DNA from: an uncultured Acidobacteriaceae bacterium
GTDB taxonomy: Bacteria > Acidobacteriota > Terriglobia > Terriglobales > Acidobacteriaceae
DNA length: 64,000 nucleotides
NCBI GenBank assembly: GCA_963804075.1
Contig: CAWDPB010000095.1
Span: forward strand, 17,379-81,378
Direction of reading: 5' to 3'
Each line of letters opens with the position of its first letter. The first letter of the stretch is position 1. Below are positions 11,340 through 57,236 of this stretch, piece by piece. Below the pieces are notes generated by a model, which saw only the letters and a list, made by a program, of their open reading frames with translations, was not told the origin of the DNA and ran no database searches. Made by a program: the position numbers and the translations under genes.

Positions 11340-11378
11340 ACCCGATTTCAACTGGCCACTGACAACTGGGAACTGTTT

Positions 11379-12650
11379 CTATGTTCCTTCGTTCCAGCTC
11401 GCCAGATACTCTTCCTGCTCGGGAGTAAGTCTGTTGATCTTGATGCCCATCGATTCCAGCTTCAGCTTGGCGACTCGCTTGTCTAAGTCGACTGGAACTG
11501 TGTAGACCTTCTTCTCGAGTGAGGCGTGGTTCTTCACCATGTATTCGCAGCAAAGAGCCTGGTCGGCGAAGCTCATATCCATGACCGACGCGGGGTGGCC
11601 TTCGGCCGCGGCCAGATTGATGAGGCGGCCTTCGCCCAGCAGGTTGATGCGGCGTCCGTCTTTCATCGTGTACTCCTCGACGAAAGTGCGCGTGGTGCGC
11701 TTCGAGCTCGACATCTTTTCGAGCGAGGGGATGTTGATCTCCACGTTGAAGTGGCCCGAATTCGAGATGATCGCGCCGTCTTTCATCGCTTCGAAGTGCT
11801 GCTTGGCGAGGACGTTCTTGTTGCCGGTGACAGTGCAGAAGACGTCGCCGAGCTTGGCGGCTTCATCCATCGACATGACGCGGAAGCCATCCATCACGGC
11901 TTCGAGCGCTTTTGTTGGATCGACTTCGGTGACGATGATTTCGGCTCCTGCGCCGCGCGCGCGTGAGGCGAGTCCTCGTCCGCACCAGCCGTAGCCGGCA
12001 ACTACGAACTTCGATCCGGCGAGCAGAAAATTGGTCGCGCGGATGATGCCGTCAATCGTCGATTGTCCTGTGCCGTAGCGGTTGTCGAACAGGTGCTTGG
12101 TGTCGGCGTCATTCACGGCAACGATGGGATATTGCAGCACGCCTTCCTTGGCCATGGCGCGCAGGCGGATGACGCCGGTAGTGGTTTCCTCGGTGCCGCC
12201 AATCACGCCTGCGAGTTCGGTCTTGCGCTTGGTGTGCAATACGCCCACTAAGTCGGCGCCGTCGTCCATGGTGATCTGCGGCTTATGGTCAAGCGCGGCC
12301 ATGATGTGCGAGTAATAGGAATCGTTGTCCTCGCCTTTAATCGCGAAGGTGGGAATGTTGTAGTCGCGCACCAGGCTGGCGGCGACGTCGTCCTGCGTGG
12401 AAAGCGGGTTCGAGGCGCAGAGCGCCACGTCGGCGCCGCCGTCGCGCAGGCAGATCATAAGATTCGCGGTCTCAGCCGTGACGTGCAGGCAGGCGGAAAT
12501 GCGGACGCCTTTGAGAGGCTGGTTCTTGATGAATTCCTTGCGGATGATCTGCAATACCTTCATCGACTGGTTGGCCCACTCGATGCGCTTTTTGCCAAGA
12601 TCGGCAAGTTCAAAATTCTTAACGTCGCTGGTAATCGATGTCGTAGCCAT
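11379..12650 (-). CDS. ahcY: Adenosylhomocysteinase
   Basis: 423 aa, intact. It has the typical SAH hydrolase N-terminus ([22 protein letters not shown]), the NAD site GYGWCGRG, and the C-terminal LTPEQEEYL. Confidence 0.97.
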
Positions 12651-19992: not shown

Positions 19993-20036
19993 TTGATAAT
20001 TTGCGTTTGTGCAACCTAGGCAAGTTCTGTTCCGAA

Positions 20037-20079
20037 CGAGATTCCTCGCCCACTCGCTTCGCTCGGGCTCGGAATGACA
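20037..20079. repeat. REP-like element (GAGATYCCTCG...GCTCRGRATGACA family) in the zwf-pgl spacer
   Basis: CGAGATTCCTCGCCCACTCGCTTCGCTCGGGCTCGGAATGACA. It is related to the copy at 52078-52135 through shared termini. Confidence 0.5.
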
Positions 20080-20090
20080 AGCTCAATAGA

Positions 20091-21643: not shown

Positions 21644-21725
21644 AAGCTGCGAGCTATGAGCCACGAGCTTCGAGCAAAATCAAAACCAAGATCCTGGCCG
21701 CTCGCGGCTCGAAGCTCGCGGTGGC
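21644..21725. repeat. Inverted pair of heptanucleotide arrays (GAGCNNN type) in the gnd-zwf spacer
   Basis: Left: AAGCTGC GAGCTAT GAGCCAC GAGCTTC GAGCAAA (21644-21678). Right: CCGCTCG CGGCTCG AAGCTCG CGGTGGC (21698-21725). A perfect 12-bp stem joins 21664-21675 and 21707-21718. Confidence 0.65.
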
Positions 21726-21749: not shown

Positions 21750-22743
21750 TTAGGTCTTCGCCGCTGCGCCTTTTGGTTCCACGTGCCCGCCGAATTTCTG
21801 GCGCATGGCGGAGAGCATCTTATCCGCGAAAGTGTGCTCCTGGCGCGAACGGAAGCGCGCAAAGAGCGCCGCGGTCAGCACTTCCGCCGGCACCGCTTCT
21901 TCGATCGCGGCCTGGATGGTCCAGCGGCCTTCGCCCGAATCCTGCACGAAGCCGCTGTACTCGGCGAGCGTGGGATTCTCCGCCAGCGCCATCGCGGTCA
22001 GGTCGAGCAGCCACGAACTGATCACGCTGCCGCGCCGCCACACTTCGGCGATCTCCGGCAGGTTGAGGTCGTAGCGAATGTCGGCCGGCAGATCCTTGCT
22101 GGTGGCGTTCTTGAAAATGTCGAAACCCTCAGCGTAAGCCTGCATGATGCCGTACTCGATGCCGTTGTGCACCATCTTGACGAAATGGCCGGAGCCGCTC
22201 GGGCCGCAGTGGATGTAGCCGTTTTCGGCGGTAGCCGCCGAGTTTGTCGAAGCCGGGAGTGCGCGGGATGTCGCCGCGTCCGGGCGCGAGCGTTTTGAAA
22301 ATCGGATCGAGCCGCTGGACGGCTTCTTTCGGGCCGCCAATCATCATGCAGTATCCGCGCTCCAGTCCCCACACGCCGCCGCTGGTGCCGACGTCAACAT
22401 AATGGACGCCTTTGGCTGCGCAGATTTGCGAGCGGCGCACGTCATCTTTGAAATAGGAGTTGCCGCCGTCGATGATGGTGTCGCCAGCTTGCATGCGCGA
22501 AAGCAGGCTCTGGACAGTCTTTTCCGTGGCATCGCCGGAGGGAACCATGACCCAGGCGGCGCGCGGCGGCGTCAGCTTCGCGACCAGATCATCGAGAGAC
22601 GATGAGCCGGTCGCGCCTTCGCCGGCGATTTGCTTGACGGCGTCGGGACTCAGATCGGAGACGACAAGTTGATGGCCGCCGCGCATCAGTCGCCGCGTCA
22701 TGTTGGCGCCCATGCGCCCCAGGCCTACCATTCCAAGTTGCAT
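21750..22743 (-). CDS. gnd: 6-phosphogluconate dehydrogenase (decarboxylating, short form), one frame disruption
   Basis: ORF 22129..22743 ([19 protein letters not shown]...[19 protein letters not shown]) joins ORF 21750..22340 at ...[34 protein letters not shown], near 22232. Confidence 0.9.
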
Positions 22744-33943: not shown

Positions 33944-33978
33944 TCCAGAGTAATGTGCATTTTAACGGAAAATTGACG

Positions 33979-34006
33979 CTGCCAGCTTTCAGCCGTCAGC
34001 TGTCAG
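33979..34006. repeat. Solo heptanucleotide array (CNNNCAG x4)
   Basis: CTGCCAG CTTTCAG CCGTCAG CTGTCAG. Its variable triplets (TTT, CGT, TGT) are also used by the array at 37213-37240. Confidence 0.55.
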
Positions 34007-34041
34007 CCAAAAACTGGCGCACTCGCCTTCACGGAAAATCT

Positions 34042-36045: not shown

Positions 36046-37212
36046 ATGTCAACCACCGCCGCAGCCGAGGCGAACACTGCCTCTCGCGATTCTAGATTAT
36101 GGCTTGCGCTCGCGCTCACCGAAGGATTGGGAGCGTCGCGAATACGAAAACTGGTCGAGCACTTCGGCGCGGTCGCGCGCATCTTCCAGGCCAGCCTCAC
36201 CGAGTTGGAAGCGAGCGGGATGAGGGCCGTCTCCGCGCAGGCGATTGCCAGCGGAAAATCGCAAGAGCTTGCCGAGGATGAACTGACCAAAGCGATTCAA
36301 GCAAAGGCCCGTATCATTTCACTGAGCGATCCCGAATATCCGCCGCGTTTAAAAGAAATTTACGATCCGCCAGTCATTCTATTTGTGAAGGGAAGCGTTG
36401 AATTGCTGTCGCAGCCTGGAATTGCGGTGGTGGGCACTCGCCATCCGACTCCGTACGGTACCGGCATGGCTGAAAGGCTAGCCACCGACCTCGCGGCGCG
36501 TGGGTTGGCGATCATTAGCGGCCTGGCACGCGGTGTCGATACGGCATCGCATCGAGGCGCCGTCGCTGCAAAGAAAAAAACCATCGCTGTCTTGGGGACT
36601 GGCATCGACGTCGTGTATCCCAAGGAGAACACGCGCTTGGCCGAACAGATTCTCGCGCTCGGCGGCACGTTGATCTCGGAATTTCCCACGGGAACGCCTC
36701 CGACGCCGCAAAACTTTCCCATCCGCAACCGGATTATCAGCGGCATGTCAGTCGGTGTGCTCGTTGTAGAGGCGGCCGAATACAGCGGAACGCGCATCAC
36801 CTCACGCTGCGCGCTGGAACAGAACCGCGACGTTTTTGCAGTGCCCGGAAACGTCACAAATAAAAATTCTTGGGGACCAAACACGCTGATCAAGCAGGGC
36901 GCCAAGCTTGTAGCCACATGGGAGGACGTTTGGGAAGACCTGCCGGCCGAGGTTCAAATGGCGCTCAACGCGGGGCGAGATGAATCTGCCGAGCCGGCAA
37001 ACGCATCTCTATTCCCGGATGAAGTTCGGTCGCCTCACGAAAAAAAGATCCTGAAGCTGCTGAAGCCCGACCAGTCGACGCAGATCGACGAACTCATGGA
37101 AATGCTGGAAAACGAAATGTCCTCCTCCGAAATCTTCGCCGCCCTGTTCGAGCTGGAGCTGAATGGCAAGATACGCCAGCTGCCGGGGAAGAATTTTGTG
37201 AAGGCATTCTAG
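36046..37212 (+). CDS. dprA: DNA-processing protein DprA
   Basis: GIAVVGTRHPTPYGTGMAERLATDLAARGLAIISGLARGVDTASHRGAV, plus a C-terminal winged-helix-like tail. Intact. Confidence 0.92.
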   Translation: MSTTAAAEANTASRDSRLWLALALTEGLGASRIRKLVEHFGAVARIFQASLTELEASGMRAVSAQAIASGKSQELAEDELTKAIQAKARIISLSDPEYPPRLKEIYDPPVILFVKGSVELLSQPGIAVVGTRHPTPYGTGMAERLATDLAARGLAIISGLARGVDTASHRGAVAAKKKTIAVLGTGIDVVYPKENTRLAEQILALGGTLISEFPTGTPPTPQNFPIRNRIISGMSVGVLVVEAAEYSGTRITSRCALEQNRDVFAVPGNVTNKNSWGPNTLIKQGAKLVATWEDVWEDLPAEVQMALNAGRDESAEPANASLFPDEVRSPHEKKILKLLKPDQSTQIDELMEMLENEMSSSEIFAALFELELNGKIRQLPGKNFVKAF

Positions 37213-37240
37213 TTTTCAGTTGTCAGTCGTCAGTTTTCAG
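37213..37240. repeat. Upstream heptanucleotide array of the four-helix-bundle cassette
   Basis: TTTTCAG TTGTCAG TCGTCAG TTTTCAG starts right after the dprA stop codon TAG (37210-37212). A degenerate tail, TAACCG CTTTCAG TAACCC, follows. Confidence 0.75.
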
Positions 37241-37272
37241 TAACCGCTTTCAGTAACCCTGGGAGGTGAACC

Positions 37273-37632
37273 ATGCAGGATTTCCGCAGCCTTCGGGTTT
37301 GGGAGAAATCCACCATCTCACTTTGGAGATTTACTCGTGCAGCAAAGCGTTTCATCGAGAGGAAGTCTACGGCTTGACGAGCCAGATGCGCCGCCCTTCA
37401 GCATCAATCGGAATGAATATCGCTGAAGGATGCGGCAGAAAAGCCAGTGCAGAGATGGGGCGGTTTCTGCAAGGTCGCGATGGGGTCGGCCGGCAAGCTT
37501 GAATATCAGCTTCTGCTCACTCGCGACCTCAACTACATGGAGGAAGCTAAGTATGAAAGGCTTAAAACGCCAGCTATTGAGGTAAAGCGTATGCTTTCGT
37601 CCCTGATGCAGAAAGTGAGGGCGGTTAACTGA
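37273..37632 (+). CDS. Four-helix-bundle protein (23S rRNA intervening-sequence protein / Avd-like family), two frame disruptions
   Basis: GGGAGG plus ATG 37273 gives MQDFRSLRVWEKS. It continues as HHLTLEIYSCSKAFHREEVYGLTSQMRRPSASIGMNIAEGCGRK (ORF 37266..37502), then AMGSAGKLEYQLLLTRDLNYMEEAKYERLKTPAIEVKRMLSSLMQK (ORF 37447..37632). Confidence 0.8.
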
Positions 37633-37657
37633 AAACTGACAACTGACGACTGAGAAC
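37630..37657. repeat. Downstream heptanucleotide array of the cassette (inverted partner)
   Basis: TGAAAAC TGACAAC TGACGAC TGAGAAC. The first TGA is the ORF stop codon. The reverse complement matches 37212-37239 at 25 of 28 positions. Confidence 0.75.
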
Positions 37658-37719
37658 GGTTGTTGCATCGCCTGCATTCGTGCTAGCTTCAAATCCAATA
37701 CCGCCAAACTGAGGAACCA

Positions 37720-41733: not shown

Positions 41734-41805
41734 ACGCAAAACATTGAGGCAGGCTTAATCAAGCCCGACCCGGAAAAATTGAAATTTTCATACCGAAAGA
41801 AAACC

Positions 41806-41847
41806 CAAAGGCGAGAGGCGAGAGGCGAAAGCCCAGAGCCGAAATTC
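41806..41847. repeat. Solo heptanucleotide array (GARAGNC type) abutting the mqnD-like start codon
   Basis: CAAAGGC GAGAGGC GAGAGGC GAAAGCC CAGAGCC GAAATTC, then AAATT and ATG 41853. Confidence 0.6.
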
Positions 41848-41852
41848 AAATT

Positions 41853-42847
41853 ATGACTACTGTTTCTTCTCCCGTTCGTGAAATTACCGTGGCCCACAGC
41901 CCGGATTCCGATGACGCCTTCATGTTTTACGGCCTGGCTACAAATAAGGTGCGCGTGCCCGGTCTTCGTTTCACGCACAAACTGTGCGAGATCGAAACCT
42001 TCAACCGGGATGCGCAGCGCGGCGTTTACGACGTGACGGCGATTTCGTTTCACGCCTATCCCTACATTCAGGAGAACTACGCGCTGATGTCGTGCGGCGG
42101 CAGCGTGGGCGAGGGCTACGGCCCCATGCTGGTTTCCGCTCGCCCTTTCACGCAGGAGAAATCAAGCAAAAGAGGATCGCGGTGCCGGGCAAGCTGACCA
42201 CGGCCTATCTGGCGCTCGAGTTGTTTGCGCCGGGCATCGAAGTCGAAGTCGTGCCCTTCGATCAGATCATTCCCCAGATTCTCGAGGGGAAATATGAAGC
42301 GGGCCTCATCATCCATGAAAGCCAGCTCACGTATGACAAGTCGGGCTTGCATCGCGTTGTCGACCTCGGAAAGTGGTGGCAGAAAATCACCGGCTTGCCT
42401 TTGCCGCTCGGGGGCAATGCAATCCGCCGCTCGCTTGGACCCGAAACCATGGCGAGCGTTACCCAGGCTCTGCATGACAGCATTCAGTACGCCATCGATC
42501 ATCGGGATGAGGCCCTCGCTTACGCCATGCAGTTCGCCCGCGATCTCGATACGCAACTCGCCGATAAATTTGTCGGCATGTACGTCAACGAGCGCACACT
42601 CGACTACGGCGAGGACGGCAGAGAAGCCGTCCGGCGTTTGCTCGATATGGGGCACAAGGCCGGTATCATTCCCCAGGAACGCAGGTTGAATCGATATCGT
42701 CGCCTGCTGCAAAACTCGAGGGATATTCGTGCCAAATGGACAACTATCTCAGCCGCCAACGTGGAGAAATCTCTTAATGTTCGCGCCACCGTGAAAGAGC
42801 GGCCCTTTAAGGGCCGCGCAGGTCGAGTGGAACGAGTCGAGCTTTAG
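41853..42847 (+). CDS. mqnD: MqnD-like futalosine-pathway protein (1,4-dihydroxy-6-naphthoate synthase family), at least one frame disruption; 3' end uncertain
   Basis: [16 protein letters not shown] matches the MqnD SPxxxDxFxFYxL signature. ORFs 41853..42197 and 41984..42847 join near 42150. The last ~150 nt run into REP-like hairpins (GCGGCCC TTTAA GGGCCGC at 42799-42817), so the real stop may be earlier. Confidence 0.7.
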
Positions 42848-52221: not shown

Positions 52222-53235
52222 CTAACGCGGGGTTAGGGCGATGTGCTGGGCGCCTTTTACGGCGCGCATGTATTGGGCGCGCTCGAAGGCGGAGGGATCG
52301 GCGCTGCGCATCTGGCACATGCTGCCTTTCATCTGCTCGACGGATTCGTACTCGTGCGCGTCCATCCACTGGCGGACGCCTTGCTCGATGGCGCGAAGGT
52401 GATCGATGCCGTTGCGAAGCAGCGTGGAGCAGAGCATGGTGACATCGGCTCCAACCATGAGCAGCTTGATAACATCCTGGGCGCCGTGAATGCCGCTGGT
52501 GGCGGCGAGGCTGGCCTTGACGCGTCCGCGGAGAATGCCGACCCATGTAAGTGGGAGGCGCATGGCTTGCGGCGTGCTCAAGAGCACGTGCGGAGCCATC
52601 TCCAGCGTTTCGAGATCGATATCGGGCTGATAGAAGCGGTTGAAGAGAACCAGTCCGTCAGCGCCGGCGGCGCCGATGCGTTGCGCCATGTTGACAAAGT
52701 TAGTGAAGAAGGGACTCAGCTTGATGGCGACGGGGATATGGACGGCGGCTTTGACGGCTTGCACGATATCGAGATAGTGCTGCTCGACCTCGGCGGAGGA
52801 CATCTTGGGATCGGTGACGATCCAGTAGATGTTGCATTCGAGGGCGTCGGCTCCGGCGTCTTCGATTTGTGTGGCGAATTGAATCCATCCGCCGACGGAG
52901 GTGCCGTTGAGGCTGGCAATCACGGGCATGTTGACGGCGTCTTTCGCCTTGCGGATGTGGTCGAGATAGTCGTCGGGGCCCAGGTGGAATTCGGAGGGCT
53001 GAGGAAAGTAAGTCAGGCTCTCGGGGAAACTTTCGGTGCCTTCGCTGAGATAGTAATCGAGTTCGAGGCTCTCCCGGCGAAGTTGCTCTTCAAAGAGGGA
53101 ATAGAGAACAACGGCGGATGCGCCGGCGTCCTCGAGCTGGCGGATGCTGGAGATCTCCTGGGAAAGAGGCGAGGCGGAGGCGACGAGTGGAGTGCGAAGG
53201 TTGAGGCCGAGATAACGGGTCGAGAGGTCGAGCAT
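52222..53235 (-). CDS. Dihydroorotate dehydrogenase-like protein (PFOR-associated)
   Basis: GGAGA plus ATG 53235 gives MLDLSTRYLGLNLRTPLVASASPLSQ, a class-1 DHOD-like TIM barrel. It lies immediately downstream of nifJ. Confidence 0.85.
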   Translation of the reverse strand: MLDLSTRYLGLNLRTPLVASASPLSQEISSIRQLEDAGASAVVLYSLFEEQLRRESLELDYYLSEGTESFPESLTYFPQPSEFHLGPDDYLDHIRKAKDAVNMPVIASLNGTSVGGWIQFATQIEDAGADALECNIYWIVTDPKMSSAEVEQHYLDIVQAVKAAVHIPVAIKLSPFFTNFVNMAQRIGAAGADGLVLFNRFYQPDIDLETLEMAPHVLLSTPQAMRLPLTWVGILRGRVKASLAATSGIHGAQDVIKLLMVGADVTMLCSTLLRNGIDHLRAIEQGVRQWMDAHEYESVEQMKGSMCQMRSADPSAFERAQYMRAVKGAQHIALTPR

Positions 53236-53249
53236 GTCTTTCTCCAAGA

Positions 53250-53431
53250 AAGCTATGAGCTATGAGCCTTGAGCTATGAGCAAGCAAAAGCAACGGTAAC
53301 AACAGCAACAACAGCAACAACAACAACAGCAACAACAACAGCAGCAACAACAGCAATGGCTAAACGGCCTTGCGCGGTGCGACTTTCATTCGCATCGGCT
53401 GAACTTGTTTCTCGTGGCTCATAGCTCGTAG
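53250..53431. repeat. Inverted heptanucleotide arrays (GAGCNNN type) enclosing a 57-nt (AAC/AGC) trinucleotide tract
   Basis: Left: AAGCTAT GAGCTAT GAGCCTT GAGCTAT GAGCAAG (53250-53284). Right: CTCGTGG CTCATAG CTCGTAG (53411-53431), abutting the nifJ stop codon. The core is 19 triplets at 53298-53354. Confidence 0.7.
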
Positions 53432-57005
<3,574 letters not shown>

Positions 57006-57236
57006 CGAAAATCTCCTCTTTCGTCCGGCGGTGGCAGGCGAGCGGGCAGGAAGAAATCTTAAGAACGCGATCCCACCCCAGGACAGCCAAACGACCGCCG
57101 TCATGACCACTATGCCGGATCAAGCGAAGCAAAGTGGCGACTTGGGTCACGGGGGGGTGTGATGGCGATCACACCGGGCAAAAGTAAGGGCGAAAACGGC
57201 GGTTTCGACTCGCCGGTTTGAGATGGTATGTCAGGT

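Follow-up and report, generated by a model that had tools for sequence, protein, structure and literature searches.

A heptad-array hairpin in the nifJ/DHOD-like spacer of an uncultured Acidobacteriaceae bacterium, a probable ORF-less remnant of an IVS-type four helix bundle cassette

The intervening sequences (IVSs) of 23S rRNA are located in helix 25 or 45, and IVSs that encode S23p/four helix bundle (4HB) proteins occur in Leptospira, Coxiella, Brucella and Alphaproteobacteria. The STRRs are tandem heptanucleotides of defined units in the intergenic DNA of heterocystous cyanobacteria. REPtrons with REP-BIME, and the RNase III-processed MITEs (Neisseria Correia elements), have gene-less derivatives that are scattered in operon spacers and whose hairpins are transcribed within mRNAs. 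We know of no function or origin for the rRNA IVSs with their S23p/4HB proteins, a puzzle since about 1990, nor for the cyanobacterial STRRs and other 7-mer arrays.

The IVS of Coxiella has a 28-bp terminal stem that is cut by RNase III, and contains tandem GACAGAT heptads in strain-variable number, with the 5' cut at the first repeat; the S23p homologue of Xanthomonas is a homopentamer of four-helix bundles (PMC4990558). Five chains each are present in the PDB relatives 2GSC and 2RLD. Heptamer arrays are described as stand-alone repeats in Xanthomonas and Nostoc, and TAACTGA arrays in Beggiatoaceae, Cyanobacteria and Bacteroidetes (PMC4692102, PMC4679880), with 70-75 inverted pairs of GGGAATC arrays per Xanthomonas genome (PMC4692102). 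Term searches of these papers revealed no link of the arrays to 4HB genes, and the literature searched ties such genes to heptad arrays only through the GACAGAT repeats of the Coxiella IVS. A further case was found in Azospirillum lipoferum AZO_p2, where a 4HB gene (3501-3830 on L199) lies inside the 23S rRNA (LSU model 1-2925 on L199 2283-5481). Inverted heptad arms of 36 nt, TCAGAGG ACGGATG ACAGAGG ACGGAGG ACAGAAAG and the complement, enclose this gene, and the insertion is a classical IVS.

The heptad-array element between nifJ and the DHOD-like gene

The window analyzed here is the whole 64,000-nucleotide stretch of DNA from an uncultured Acidobacteriaceae bacterium. Two co-oriented genes on its minus strand are separated by an inverted pair of heptad arrays. 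The features of the locus, in operon order, are as follows.

53432-57110, minus strand: nifJ, pyruvate:ferredoxin oxidoreductase, upstream cistron, with Pfam domains on two overlapping ORFs
53411-53434, minus strand: 5' arm (operon sense), TAGCTAC GAGCTAT GAGCCAC GAG, the first triplet being the nifJ stop
53357-53410, minus strand: loop interior, a unique segment without ORF or significant 4HB remnant
53285-53356, minus strand: T/G-rich (TTG/CTG)n tract, adjoining the 3' arm on its upstream side (TRF 53279-53356)
53250-53284, minus strand: 3' arm (operon sense), five GCTCNNN heptads, GCTCATA GCTCAAG GCTCATA GCTCATA GCTT
53241-53245 and 53233-53235, minus strand: SD (GGAGA) and ATG of the DHOD-like gene
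52222-53235, minus strand: DHOD-like gene (PRK07565), downstream cistron, NCBIfam E=1.4e-147

On the plus strand, 53250-53284 reads as five phased heptads, AAGCTAT GAGCTAT GAGCCTT GAGCTAT GAGCAAG, which face the inverted array CTCGTGG CTCATAG CTCGTAG CT(A) at 53411-53434. The original prediction of phased period-7 heptads in inverted orientation agrees with the inverted-repeat finder, which places 23-nt arms at 53251-53273 and 53411-53433 (87% complementary, 137 nt apart). The arms form 20 Watson-Crick pairs with three mismatches, 2 G.U and 1 U.U on the plus strand and 2 A.C and 1 A.A on the operon-sense minus strand. The 5' arm lies on the stop codon of the co-oriented upstream gene, the TAG of nifJ (53432-53434) doubling as its first triplet, and the 3' arm just before the next start, with 4 nt between the array and the SD. 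As the stop is followed by the DHOD-like start at 53235 with only the SD between element and start, the element occupies the whole 196-nt spacer, as had been claimed.

The element is probably the ORF-less remnant of an IVS-type cassette, which consists of a heptad array, a PF05635/TIGR02436 Avd-like 4HB gene and an inverted array; its identity as a cassette relic is well supported. The hairpin first noted in the sequence stands as observed; rather than a free-standing regulatory hairpin, it is most probably the shell of a 4HB/23S-IVS protein cassette, which had gone unnoticed. Neither ORF calls nor alignment nor HMM searches revealed a PF05635 ORF or a significant remnant of one in 53285-53410, and the element is accordingly classed as a relic or derivative rather than an intact cassette. 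The loop interior is similar to that of the ORF-less L002 spacer. A 4HB coding scar in the loop was considered and rejected: local alignment to the L004 gene gave a score of 20, which was matched by 30 of 500 shuffles, and the HMM gave E=9.4 only, so that a scar is not claimable.

Chance is excluded as the origin of the heptad inverted repeat. The pattern GAGCN3GAGCN3GAGC with at most one mismatch matches 11 times in the window, as compared to 0.95 expected and at most 4 in 100 shuffles. Four period-7 arrays were found in the window and 0-1 for each of the periods 5, 6 and 8-11; only period 7 is enriched. The best inverted-repeat score was 15.5, against 7.9 +/- 0.95 (maximum 11) in 300 dinucleotide shuffles. 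The 17-mer GAGCTATGAGCCACGAG occurs exactly at 21651-21667 (plus strand) and 53411-53427 (minus strand), with 0 occurrences expected, which unites the 53.3-kb and 21.6-kb loci in one dispersed GAGCNNN family, as predicted. This family extends beyond the one pair, since the arm barcode AGCTGC-GAGCTAY-GAGCCRC-GAGCTTC-GAGC recurs in other genomes. The presence of the 17-mer on both strands is a necessary consequence of arms that are inverted copies from a single heptad family. An asymmetric T/G-rich tract (cttggttttgatttt or (TTG/CTG)n) precedes the minus-strand GCTC arm in both GAGC elements of the window and in the ORF-bearing orthologues; both window elements are therefore co-oriented with their operons, contrary to the opposite orientation relative to transcription that had been assigned to them.

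The 225-nt element region is 100% identical in four other independent metagenome assemblies, which encode an identical DHOD-like protein, and the element is thus no assembly artefact. The window nifJ is frameshifted by a private extra T at 54149 into ORFs of 1124 and 234 aa; the gene is intact, with 1190 aa, in L161-L163. Single-base insertions private to the window as compared to all other same-species assemblies are located at 54149, 50760, 35331 and 35696, and the window gnd is broken into two overlapping ORFs (21750-22340 and 22129-22743). The private insertions and the split gnd and nifJ probably reflect errors in the source, of assembly or indel type, rather than biology.

In the MFE structure of the whole spacer RNA the arms are paired in the window (22 pairs), L004 (27), L176 (29), L185 (18) and L002 (14 + 11); in the window, the two arms are joined to each other on either strand, in the centroid as well as the MFE structure. 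Folding of the minus-strand spacer, which had been proposed as a check, thus confirmed the pairing but gave an energy no better than that of shuffles (z=-0.3, as compared to z=-4.5 for the antisense strand), because the U/G-rich loop folds well even when shuffled. Among 73 cassettes no wobble excess was detected on the sense strand (G.U 90, A.C 84), i.e. no signal of RNA-specific selection. The unit types of the lineages (CGAGC/GCTCG vs TGAGC/GCTCA) are only partly concerted between the arms, and heptad gain and loss makes column homology in aligned arms unreliable. The near-equal numbers of G.U and A.C across the family, the A.C mismatches on the window sense strand and the z value of that strand suggest that the arms may stay complementary through processes acting on the DNA, such as the turnover of units or copying from arm to arm, and that the relic may be functionally neutral.

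The (TTG/CTG)n tract reads as (CAA/CAG)n on the plus strand and yields a 51-codon T/A-rich antisense ORF, 53269-53424 (plus strand), which was annotated by the gene caller in L162; the ORF is probably spurious and is not present in relatives. A product of the plus strand, either an antisense RNA or this ORF, would be in keeping with the better folding and the G.U mismatches of that strand and with the 51-aa gene called in one assembly. No promoter-like site was found for it, the ORF is a low-complexity read-through of the repeat tract, and the family is without G.U strand bias, all of which makes such a product hardly credible.

Rfam searches returned no family, rRNA included, in the window or in 20 cassette loci, the defence-system models of PADLOC gave no match, and a promoter or terminator scan at the nifJ/DHOD-like element found nothing. 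An intrinsic terminator or attenuator between the two genes would explain an inverted repeat right after a stop codon, with a short UUUCUU past the 3' arm. However, the loop measures 137 nt, a proper U-run is lacking, the scan detected no terminator at the element, and the arms of relatives enclose a translated gene of ~390 nt; this interpretation is very unlikely.

Orthologous spacers and sister cassettes

Relatives were collected by a scan with the DHOD-like protein, which gave 80 Terriglobales/Acidobacteriaceae genomes, all with the synteny nifJ to DHOD-like. Most of their spacers are 0-125 nt long and lack the element, and GAGC-type arms were found in none of the 71 other related genomes listed. 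The L004 spacer encloses an intact 129-aa 4HB gene (PF05635 E=3.3e-41), co-oriented with the operon, between GAGCNNN and GCTCNNN arrays, and both ends of the window element align to the L004 arms. Homologues of the 4HB protein with 92%, 76%, 76% and 74% identity were all found in the context nifJ-4HB-DHOD-like, an order present in L004, L176/177, L179-184, L185-187 and L188-190.

The ORF-bearing lineages share one plan: the nifJ stop (TAG/TAA) is fused to the first GAGC heptad and followed by the 4HB ORF (~390 nt), a T/G-rich tract, the GCTC array, ~8 nt, GGAGA and ATG. The 5' arms of L004, L176, L179, L185 and L189 are homologous to that of the window and all begin at the nifJ stop, and GGAGAAAGA-ATG follows the 3' arm in L004 and L176 as in the window. 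In L179, L185, L004 and L176 the 4HB stop is separated from the GCTC arm by a T/G-rich tract, the positional homologue of the (TTG/CTG)n tract of the window. The tract is length-polymorphic, L181 having 12 extra nt as compared to L179, and the number of heptads differs between near-identical strains, L178 lacking one GAGCTTC unit of L176. Comparison of the orthologous spacers, suggested earlier as a check, showed that the pairing potential is kept. In some of the nifJ-site cassettes of L179-L187 the ORF is preceded by an additional GAGC/GCTC hairpin, short but complete, so that the 5' arm can pair with the proximal or the distal GCTC array in alternative structures.

The 4HB genes at the nifJ site differ by up to 27% of amino acids, with dN/dS of 0.08-0.13 and dS reaching above 1.3, which indicates purifying selection and a long vertical residence of the cassette at this site. 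Judged from these values, the nifJ-site cassette is an old, vertically inherited and functional resident of the sister lineages. In a neighbor-joining tree of a single protein, the DHOD-like one, the ORF-less window and L001 are nested among the ORF-bearing lineages. The window retains every part of the plan of these lineages except the ORF, and its (TTG/CTG)n tract matches the post-ORF tract of L179. By sequence comparison, the cassette is placed in the nifJ/DHOD-like spacer of an ancestor of this Terriglobales clade, with a later loss of the 4HB ORF in the window lineage, which both arms and the T/G-rich tract have outlasted. The loss is deduced from phylogenetic position and from arm and tract homology, not from a visible scar. 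For such cassettes in general, a reverse history, in which 4HB genes settled in pre-existing hairpins, is conceivable.

The insertion took the nifJ stop codon as its docking site, and its other end lies right ahead of the DHOD-like SD. The spacer would be transcribed within the nifJ-DHOD-like mRNA, where the arms are predicted to pair in an imperfect stem of ~22 bp that closes the 137-nt loop and would place the nifJ stop beside the ribosome-binding site of the following gene. As in 23S rRNA IVSs of like architecture, the stem is a plausible substrate of RNase III; if it were cut, the insertion could be tolerated or excised without disruption of the host transcript. For the operon, the relic may be a tolerated fossil.

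The window contains further heptad elements, three of them solo arrays for which a search over 800 nt detected no inverted partner.

21644-21721, minus strand: second GAGCNNN element, located between gnd and zwf, a hairpin with a short loop and no ORF, in the orientation of the operon
37207-37661, plus strand: sister cassette in dprA-topA, with TCAGTNN arms (37212-37241 and 37628-37657) around a 4HB pseudogene (37273-37630)
11348-11376: solo CAGTNNN array, 2 nt past the stop of a minus-strand gene that ends at 11379
33977-34010: solo TCAGCNN array in a divergent intergenic region
41798-41844: solo AGGCGAG array, ending 8 nt ahead of the ATG at 41853

The arms of the dprA-topA cassette are 30 nt long with 27 Watson-Crick pairs, and the dprA stop TAG adjoins its first heptad. 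Its 4HB gene is twice frameshifted, with 4HB HMM matches in three frames, and the reconstructed ORF is a TIGR02436 'four helix bundle protein' (E=2.9e-32). As identical frameshifts are present in L173 and L174, this copy is a true pseudogene. The hairpin at 21644-21721 folds at -51.3 kcal/mol (z=-3.5). The window thus shows a decay series of a pseudogene cassette (37.2 kb), an ORF-less long-loop element (53.3 kb) and a short hairpin (21.6 kb). One 393-kb contig contains both cassettes in intact form, nifJ-4HB-DHOD (L189) and dprA-4HB-topA (L191), separated by 18 kb as they are in the window. At the dprA site of L191, GAGC arms surround an intact 4HB gene whose product shares 68-74% identity with the nifJ-site proteins; the window pseudogene at this site is flanked by TCAGT arms, and its identity is only about 52%. 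It follows that arms and gene travel together and that cassettes of two types have occupied a single site.

An exact look-up of the window zwf protein gave no match, and the gnd-zwf spacers of relatives were reached through zwf homologues. A relative with 97% zwf identity (L193) has a CATTGAG/TCAATGA heptad hairpin in this spacer, the gnd stop lying inside the first heptad; other relatives have either GCTC remnants or repeats of an unrelated kind there. ORF-less heptad hairpins are common in the related genomes. In the pentose-phosphate operon of close relatives, hairpins of other unit types are located at L193 1381-1501 and 3042-3175 and at L195 3042-3130, among them a GTAATTN/NAATTAC hairpin in the zwf-pgl spacer (L193/L195). 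These two spacers point to a rapid turnover of the unit type at fixed intercistronic sites. The zwf-pgl spacer of the window itself carries, at about 20030-20085, the inverted motif GTCATTCCGAGC...GCGAGGAATCTC of another repeat family, and a GGCGCAGCGCTTCAGCGCTGCG / GCGGCTTTAGCCGC hairpin element is found in the operon spacers of several relatives (L001, L003, L005 and L195 spacers).

The spacers of the relatives bear on a different explanation, in which the hairpin is a host-selected 'punctuation' of the operon that serves mRNA processing or stability, or translational coupling, and the 4HB genes are secondary lodgers. The persistence of the arms in ORF-less lineages (window, L002) across saturated dS, their exact placement between stop codon and SD, the ORF-less heptad hairpins of other units in other operon spacers of relatives, and the invariance of the element in 5 assemblies would all fit such a role. 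However, GAGC-type arms are missing from this spacer in the 71 other genomes listed, where it mostly measures 0-125 nt; the turnover of unit types at one site (L193 gnd-zwf) resembles element replacement rather than a conserved regulator; the sense strand has no G.U excess; and the arm type tracks the 4HB subfamily. Operon punctuation therefore seems unlikely.

4HB cassettes with heptad arms in other genomes

The cassette organization is not confined to the Terriglobales. A metagenome scan with the 4HB alignment gave 80 loci of 45-70% identity, and ORFs from the same loci served as controls. Inverted flanks were found at 62 of 71 metagenomic 4HB genes and at 2 of 216 control ORFs, and period-7 arrays on both flanks at 47 of the 71 and at none of the 216. 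Arrays were detected by TRF in 147 of 160 4HB flanks, with a period of 7 or 14 in 138 of the 147 and a median of 4.3 units. The units are diverse and include GAGCNNN, TAGCNNN, TCAGCNN, TCAGTNN, TTAGGTA and GGGGACT.

The position of the cassettes relative to genes is likewise non-random. For 52 of 62 cassettes, the stop codon of a long co-oriented upstream ORF lies in or at the 5' arm (random positions 10.5%), and for 60% the start of a co-oriented ORF is found no more than 30 nt from the 3' arm (controls 21%). In L081-L160, sense-strand stops in all three frames are present in the 3' arms of 41 of 72 cassettes and in the 5' arms of 20 of 72. Because 7 is not divisible by 3, a single stop in each unit is enough for an array to close all frames. 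In the same set of loci the 4HB stop codon often falls within the first 3' heptad (e.g. TAACTGA, CTCCTGA).

Among finished genomes, inverted arrays accompany a 4HB gene in Nostoc punctiforme, Trichormus variabilis, Riemerella and Azospirillum, and direct, not inverted, arrays in Pseudanabaena and Gemmatirosa. The 4HB gene of the Pseudanabaena galeata plasmid pPg_01 (L168, 46268-46627) lies between cas6 and cas4, with about 16 direct AGCTAAA units upstream and AGCCAAA units downstream.

These data also bear on the view that the element is a MITE-like non-autonomous DNA transposon, the arrays acting as terminal inverted repeats for a transposase encoded elsewhere and RNA structure being irrelevant. 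TIR-like arms are present in the window, with two GAGC copies in 64 kb that share an arm segment identical at 17/17 positions; the mismatch spectrum is strand-symmetric (G.U ~ A.C), one site has been occupied by different cassette types, and 4HB homologues are often found on ~1 kb contigs, as repeats would be. Inspection by eye of the outer ends in the window and relatives showed no target-site duplication or direct repeat, however, and no transposase is associated. Long vertical inheritance of the nifJ-site copy is not in keeping with such a transposon, and the strong co-orientation with the upstream gene, docking on stop codons and the strand-specific excess of stops in the 3' arms point to constraints at the level of transcript or translation. 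We regard a transposon of this kind as quite improbable.

It is possible, though rather doubtful at present, that the heptad-armed 4HB/S23p cassettes form one phylum-spanning class of transcript hitch-hikers that are excised from the host RNA by RNase III at their arm stem. If so, they would dock on stop codons in operons or, as the classical IVSs, in helices of 23S rRNA; their gene-less shells would explain a substantial part of the heptanucleotide arrays of bacteria that lack an explanation (STRRs, the inverted GGGAATC pairs of Xanthomonas and TAACTGA); and the ~4-5 heptads usual for an array may match the pentameric 4HB ring, which would in that case bind its own arms. The observations suggest that a single type of element, mostly located between ordinary operon cistrons, underlies rRNA IVSs, S23p/4HB proteins, STRRs and other 7-mer arrays. 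For annotation, inverted heptad arrays at a stop codon would be recorded as a cassette or its relic, and the cassette view accounts for 4HB genes and heptad spacers that break metagenome assemblies. The class-level pattern looks more interesting than the single nifJ/DHOD-like locus.

Comparison with known systems

Like Avd of the diversity-generating retroelements, the cassette protein has a homologous pentameric four-helix-bundle fold (PHROG Avd E=6e-11, PF22296 below threshold); unlike there, the cassette gene stands alone, with no reverse transcriptase and no TR/VR repeats nearby. The arrangement of a small gene between inverted repeat copies, with gene-less derivatives in operon spacers, is shared with REPtrons and REP-BIME. 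The cassettes differ from REPtrons and Correia elements in their gene, which is 4HB/Avd-like and not a RAYT transposase, in arms of tandem heptads instead of a single palindrome or TIR, and in the lack of a visible target duplication at the window element.

With the STRR, Xanthomonas and TAACTGA arrays the element has in common that tandem 7-mers are intergenic, often in convergent pairs and often abutting start or stop codons. The tandem heptad structure is that of the cyanobacterial STRRs, although unit (GAGCNNN) and host (Acidobacteriota/Terriglobales) are different. The 4HB genes of Nostoc and Trichormus are flanked by heptanucleotide arrays of this sort, and the cassette arm GGGGACT of L151 is the reverse complement of a rotation of CCCCAGT, the STRR1 unit.

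The window element differs from the IVSs of 23S rRNA in its location between two protein-coding cistrons, docked on a stop codon and ending at an SD, and in the loss of its ORF. It resembles the S23p-encoding IVSs in several respects: terminal inverted repeats surround a PF05635 ORF in its ORF-bearing relatives, the stem consists of tandem heptads as in Azospirillum and Coxiella, the heptad copy number is strain-variable (here L178 vs L176) as in Coxiella, and the ORF tends to decay while the RNA shell stays. The arms of 23 nt with 20 Watson-Crick pairs are comparable to an IVS stem of about 20-36 bp (Azospirillum 36 nt, Coxiella 28 bp). Through this cassette relic, the scattered 7-base repeat arrays of bacteria are suggested to be tied to the puzzle of the rRNA intervening sequences.
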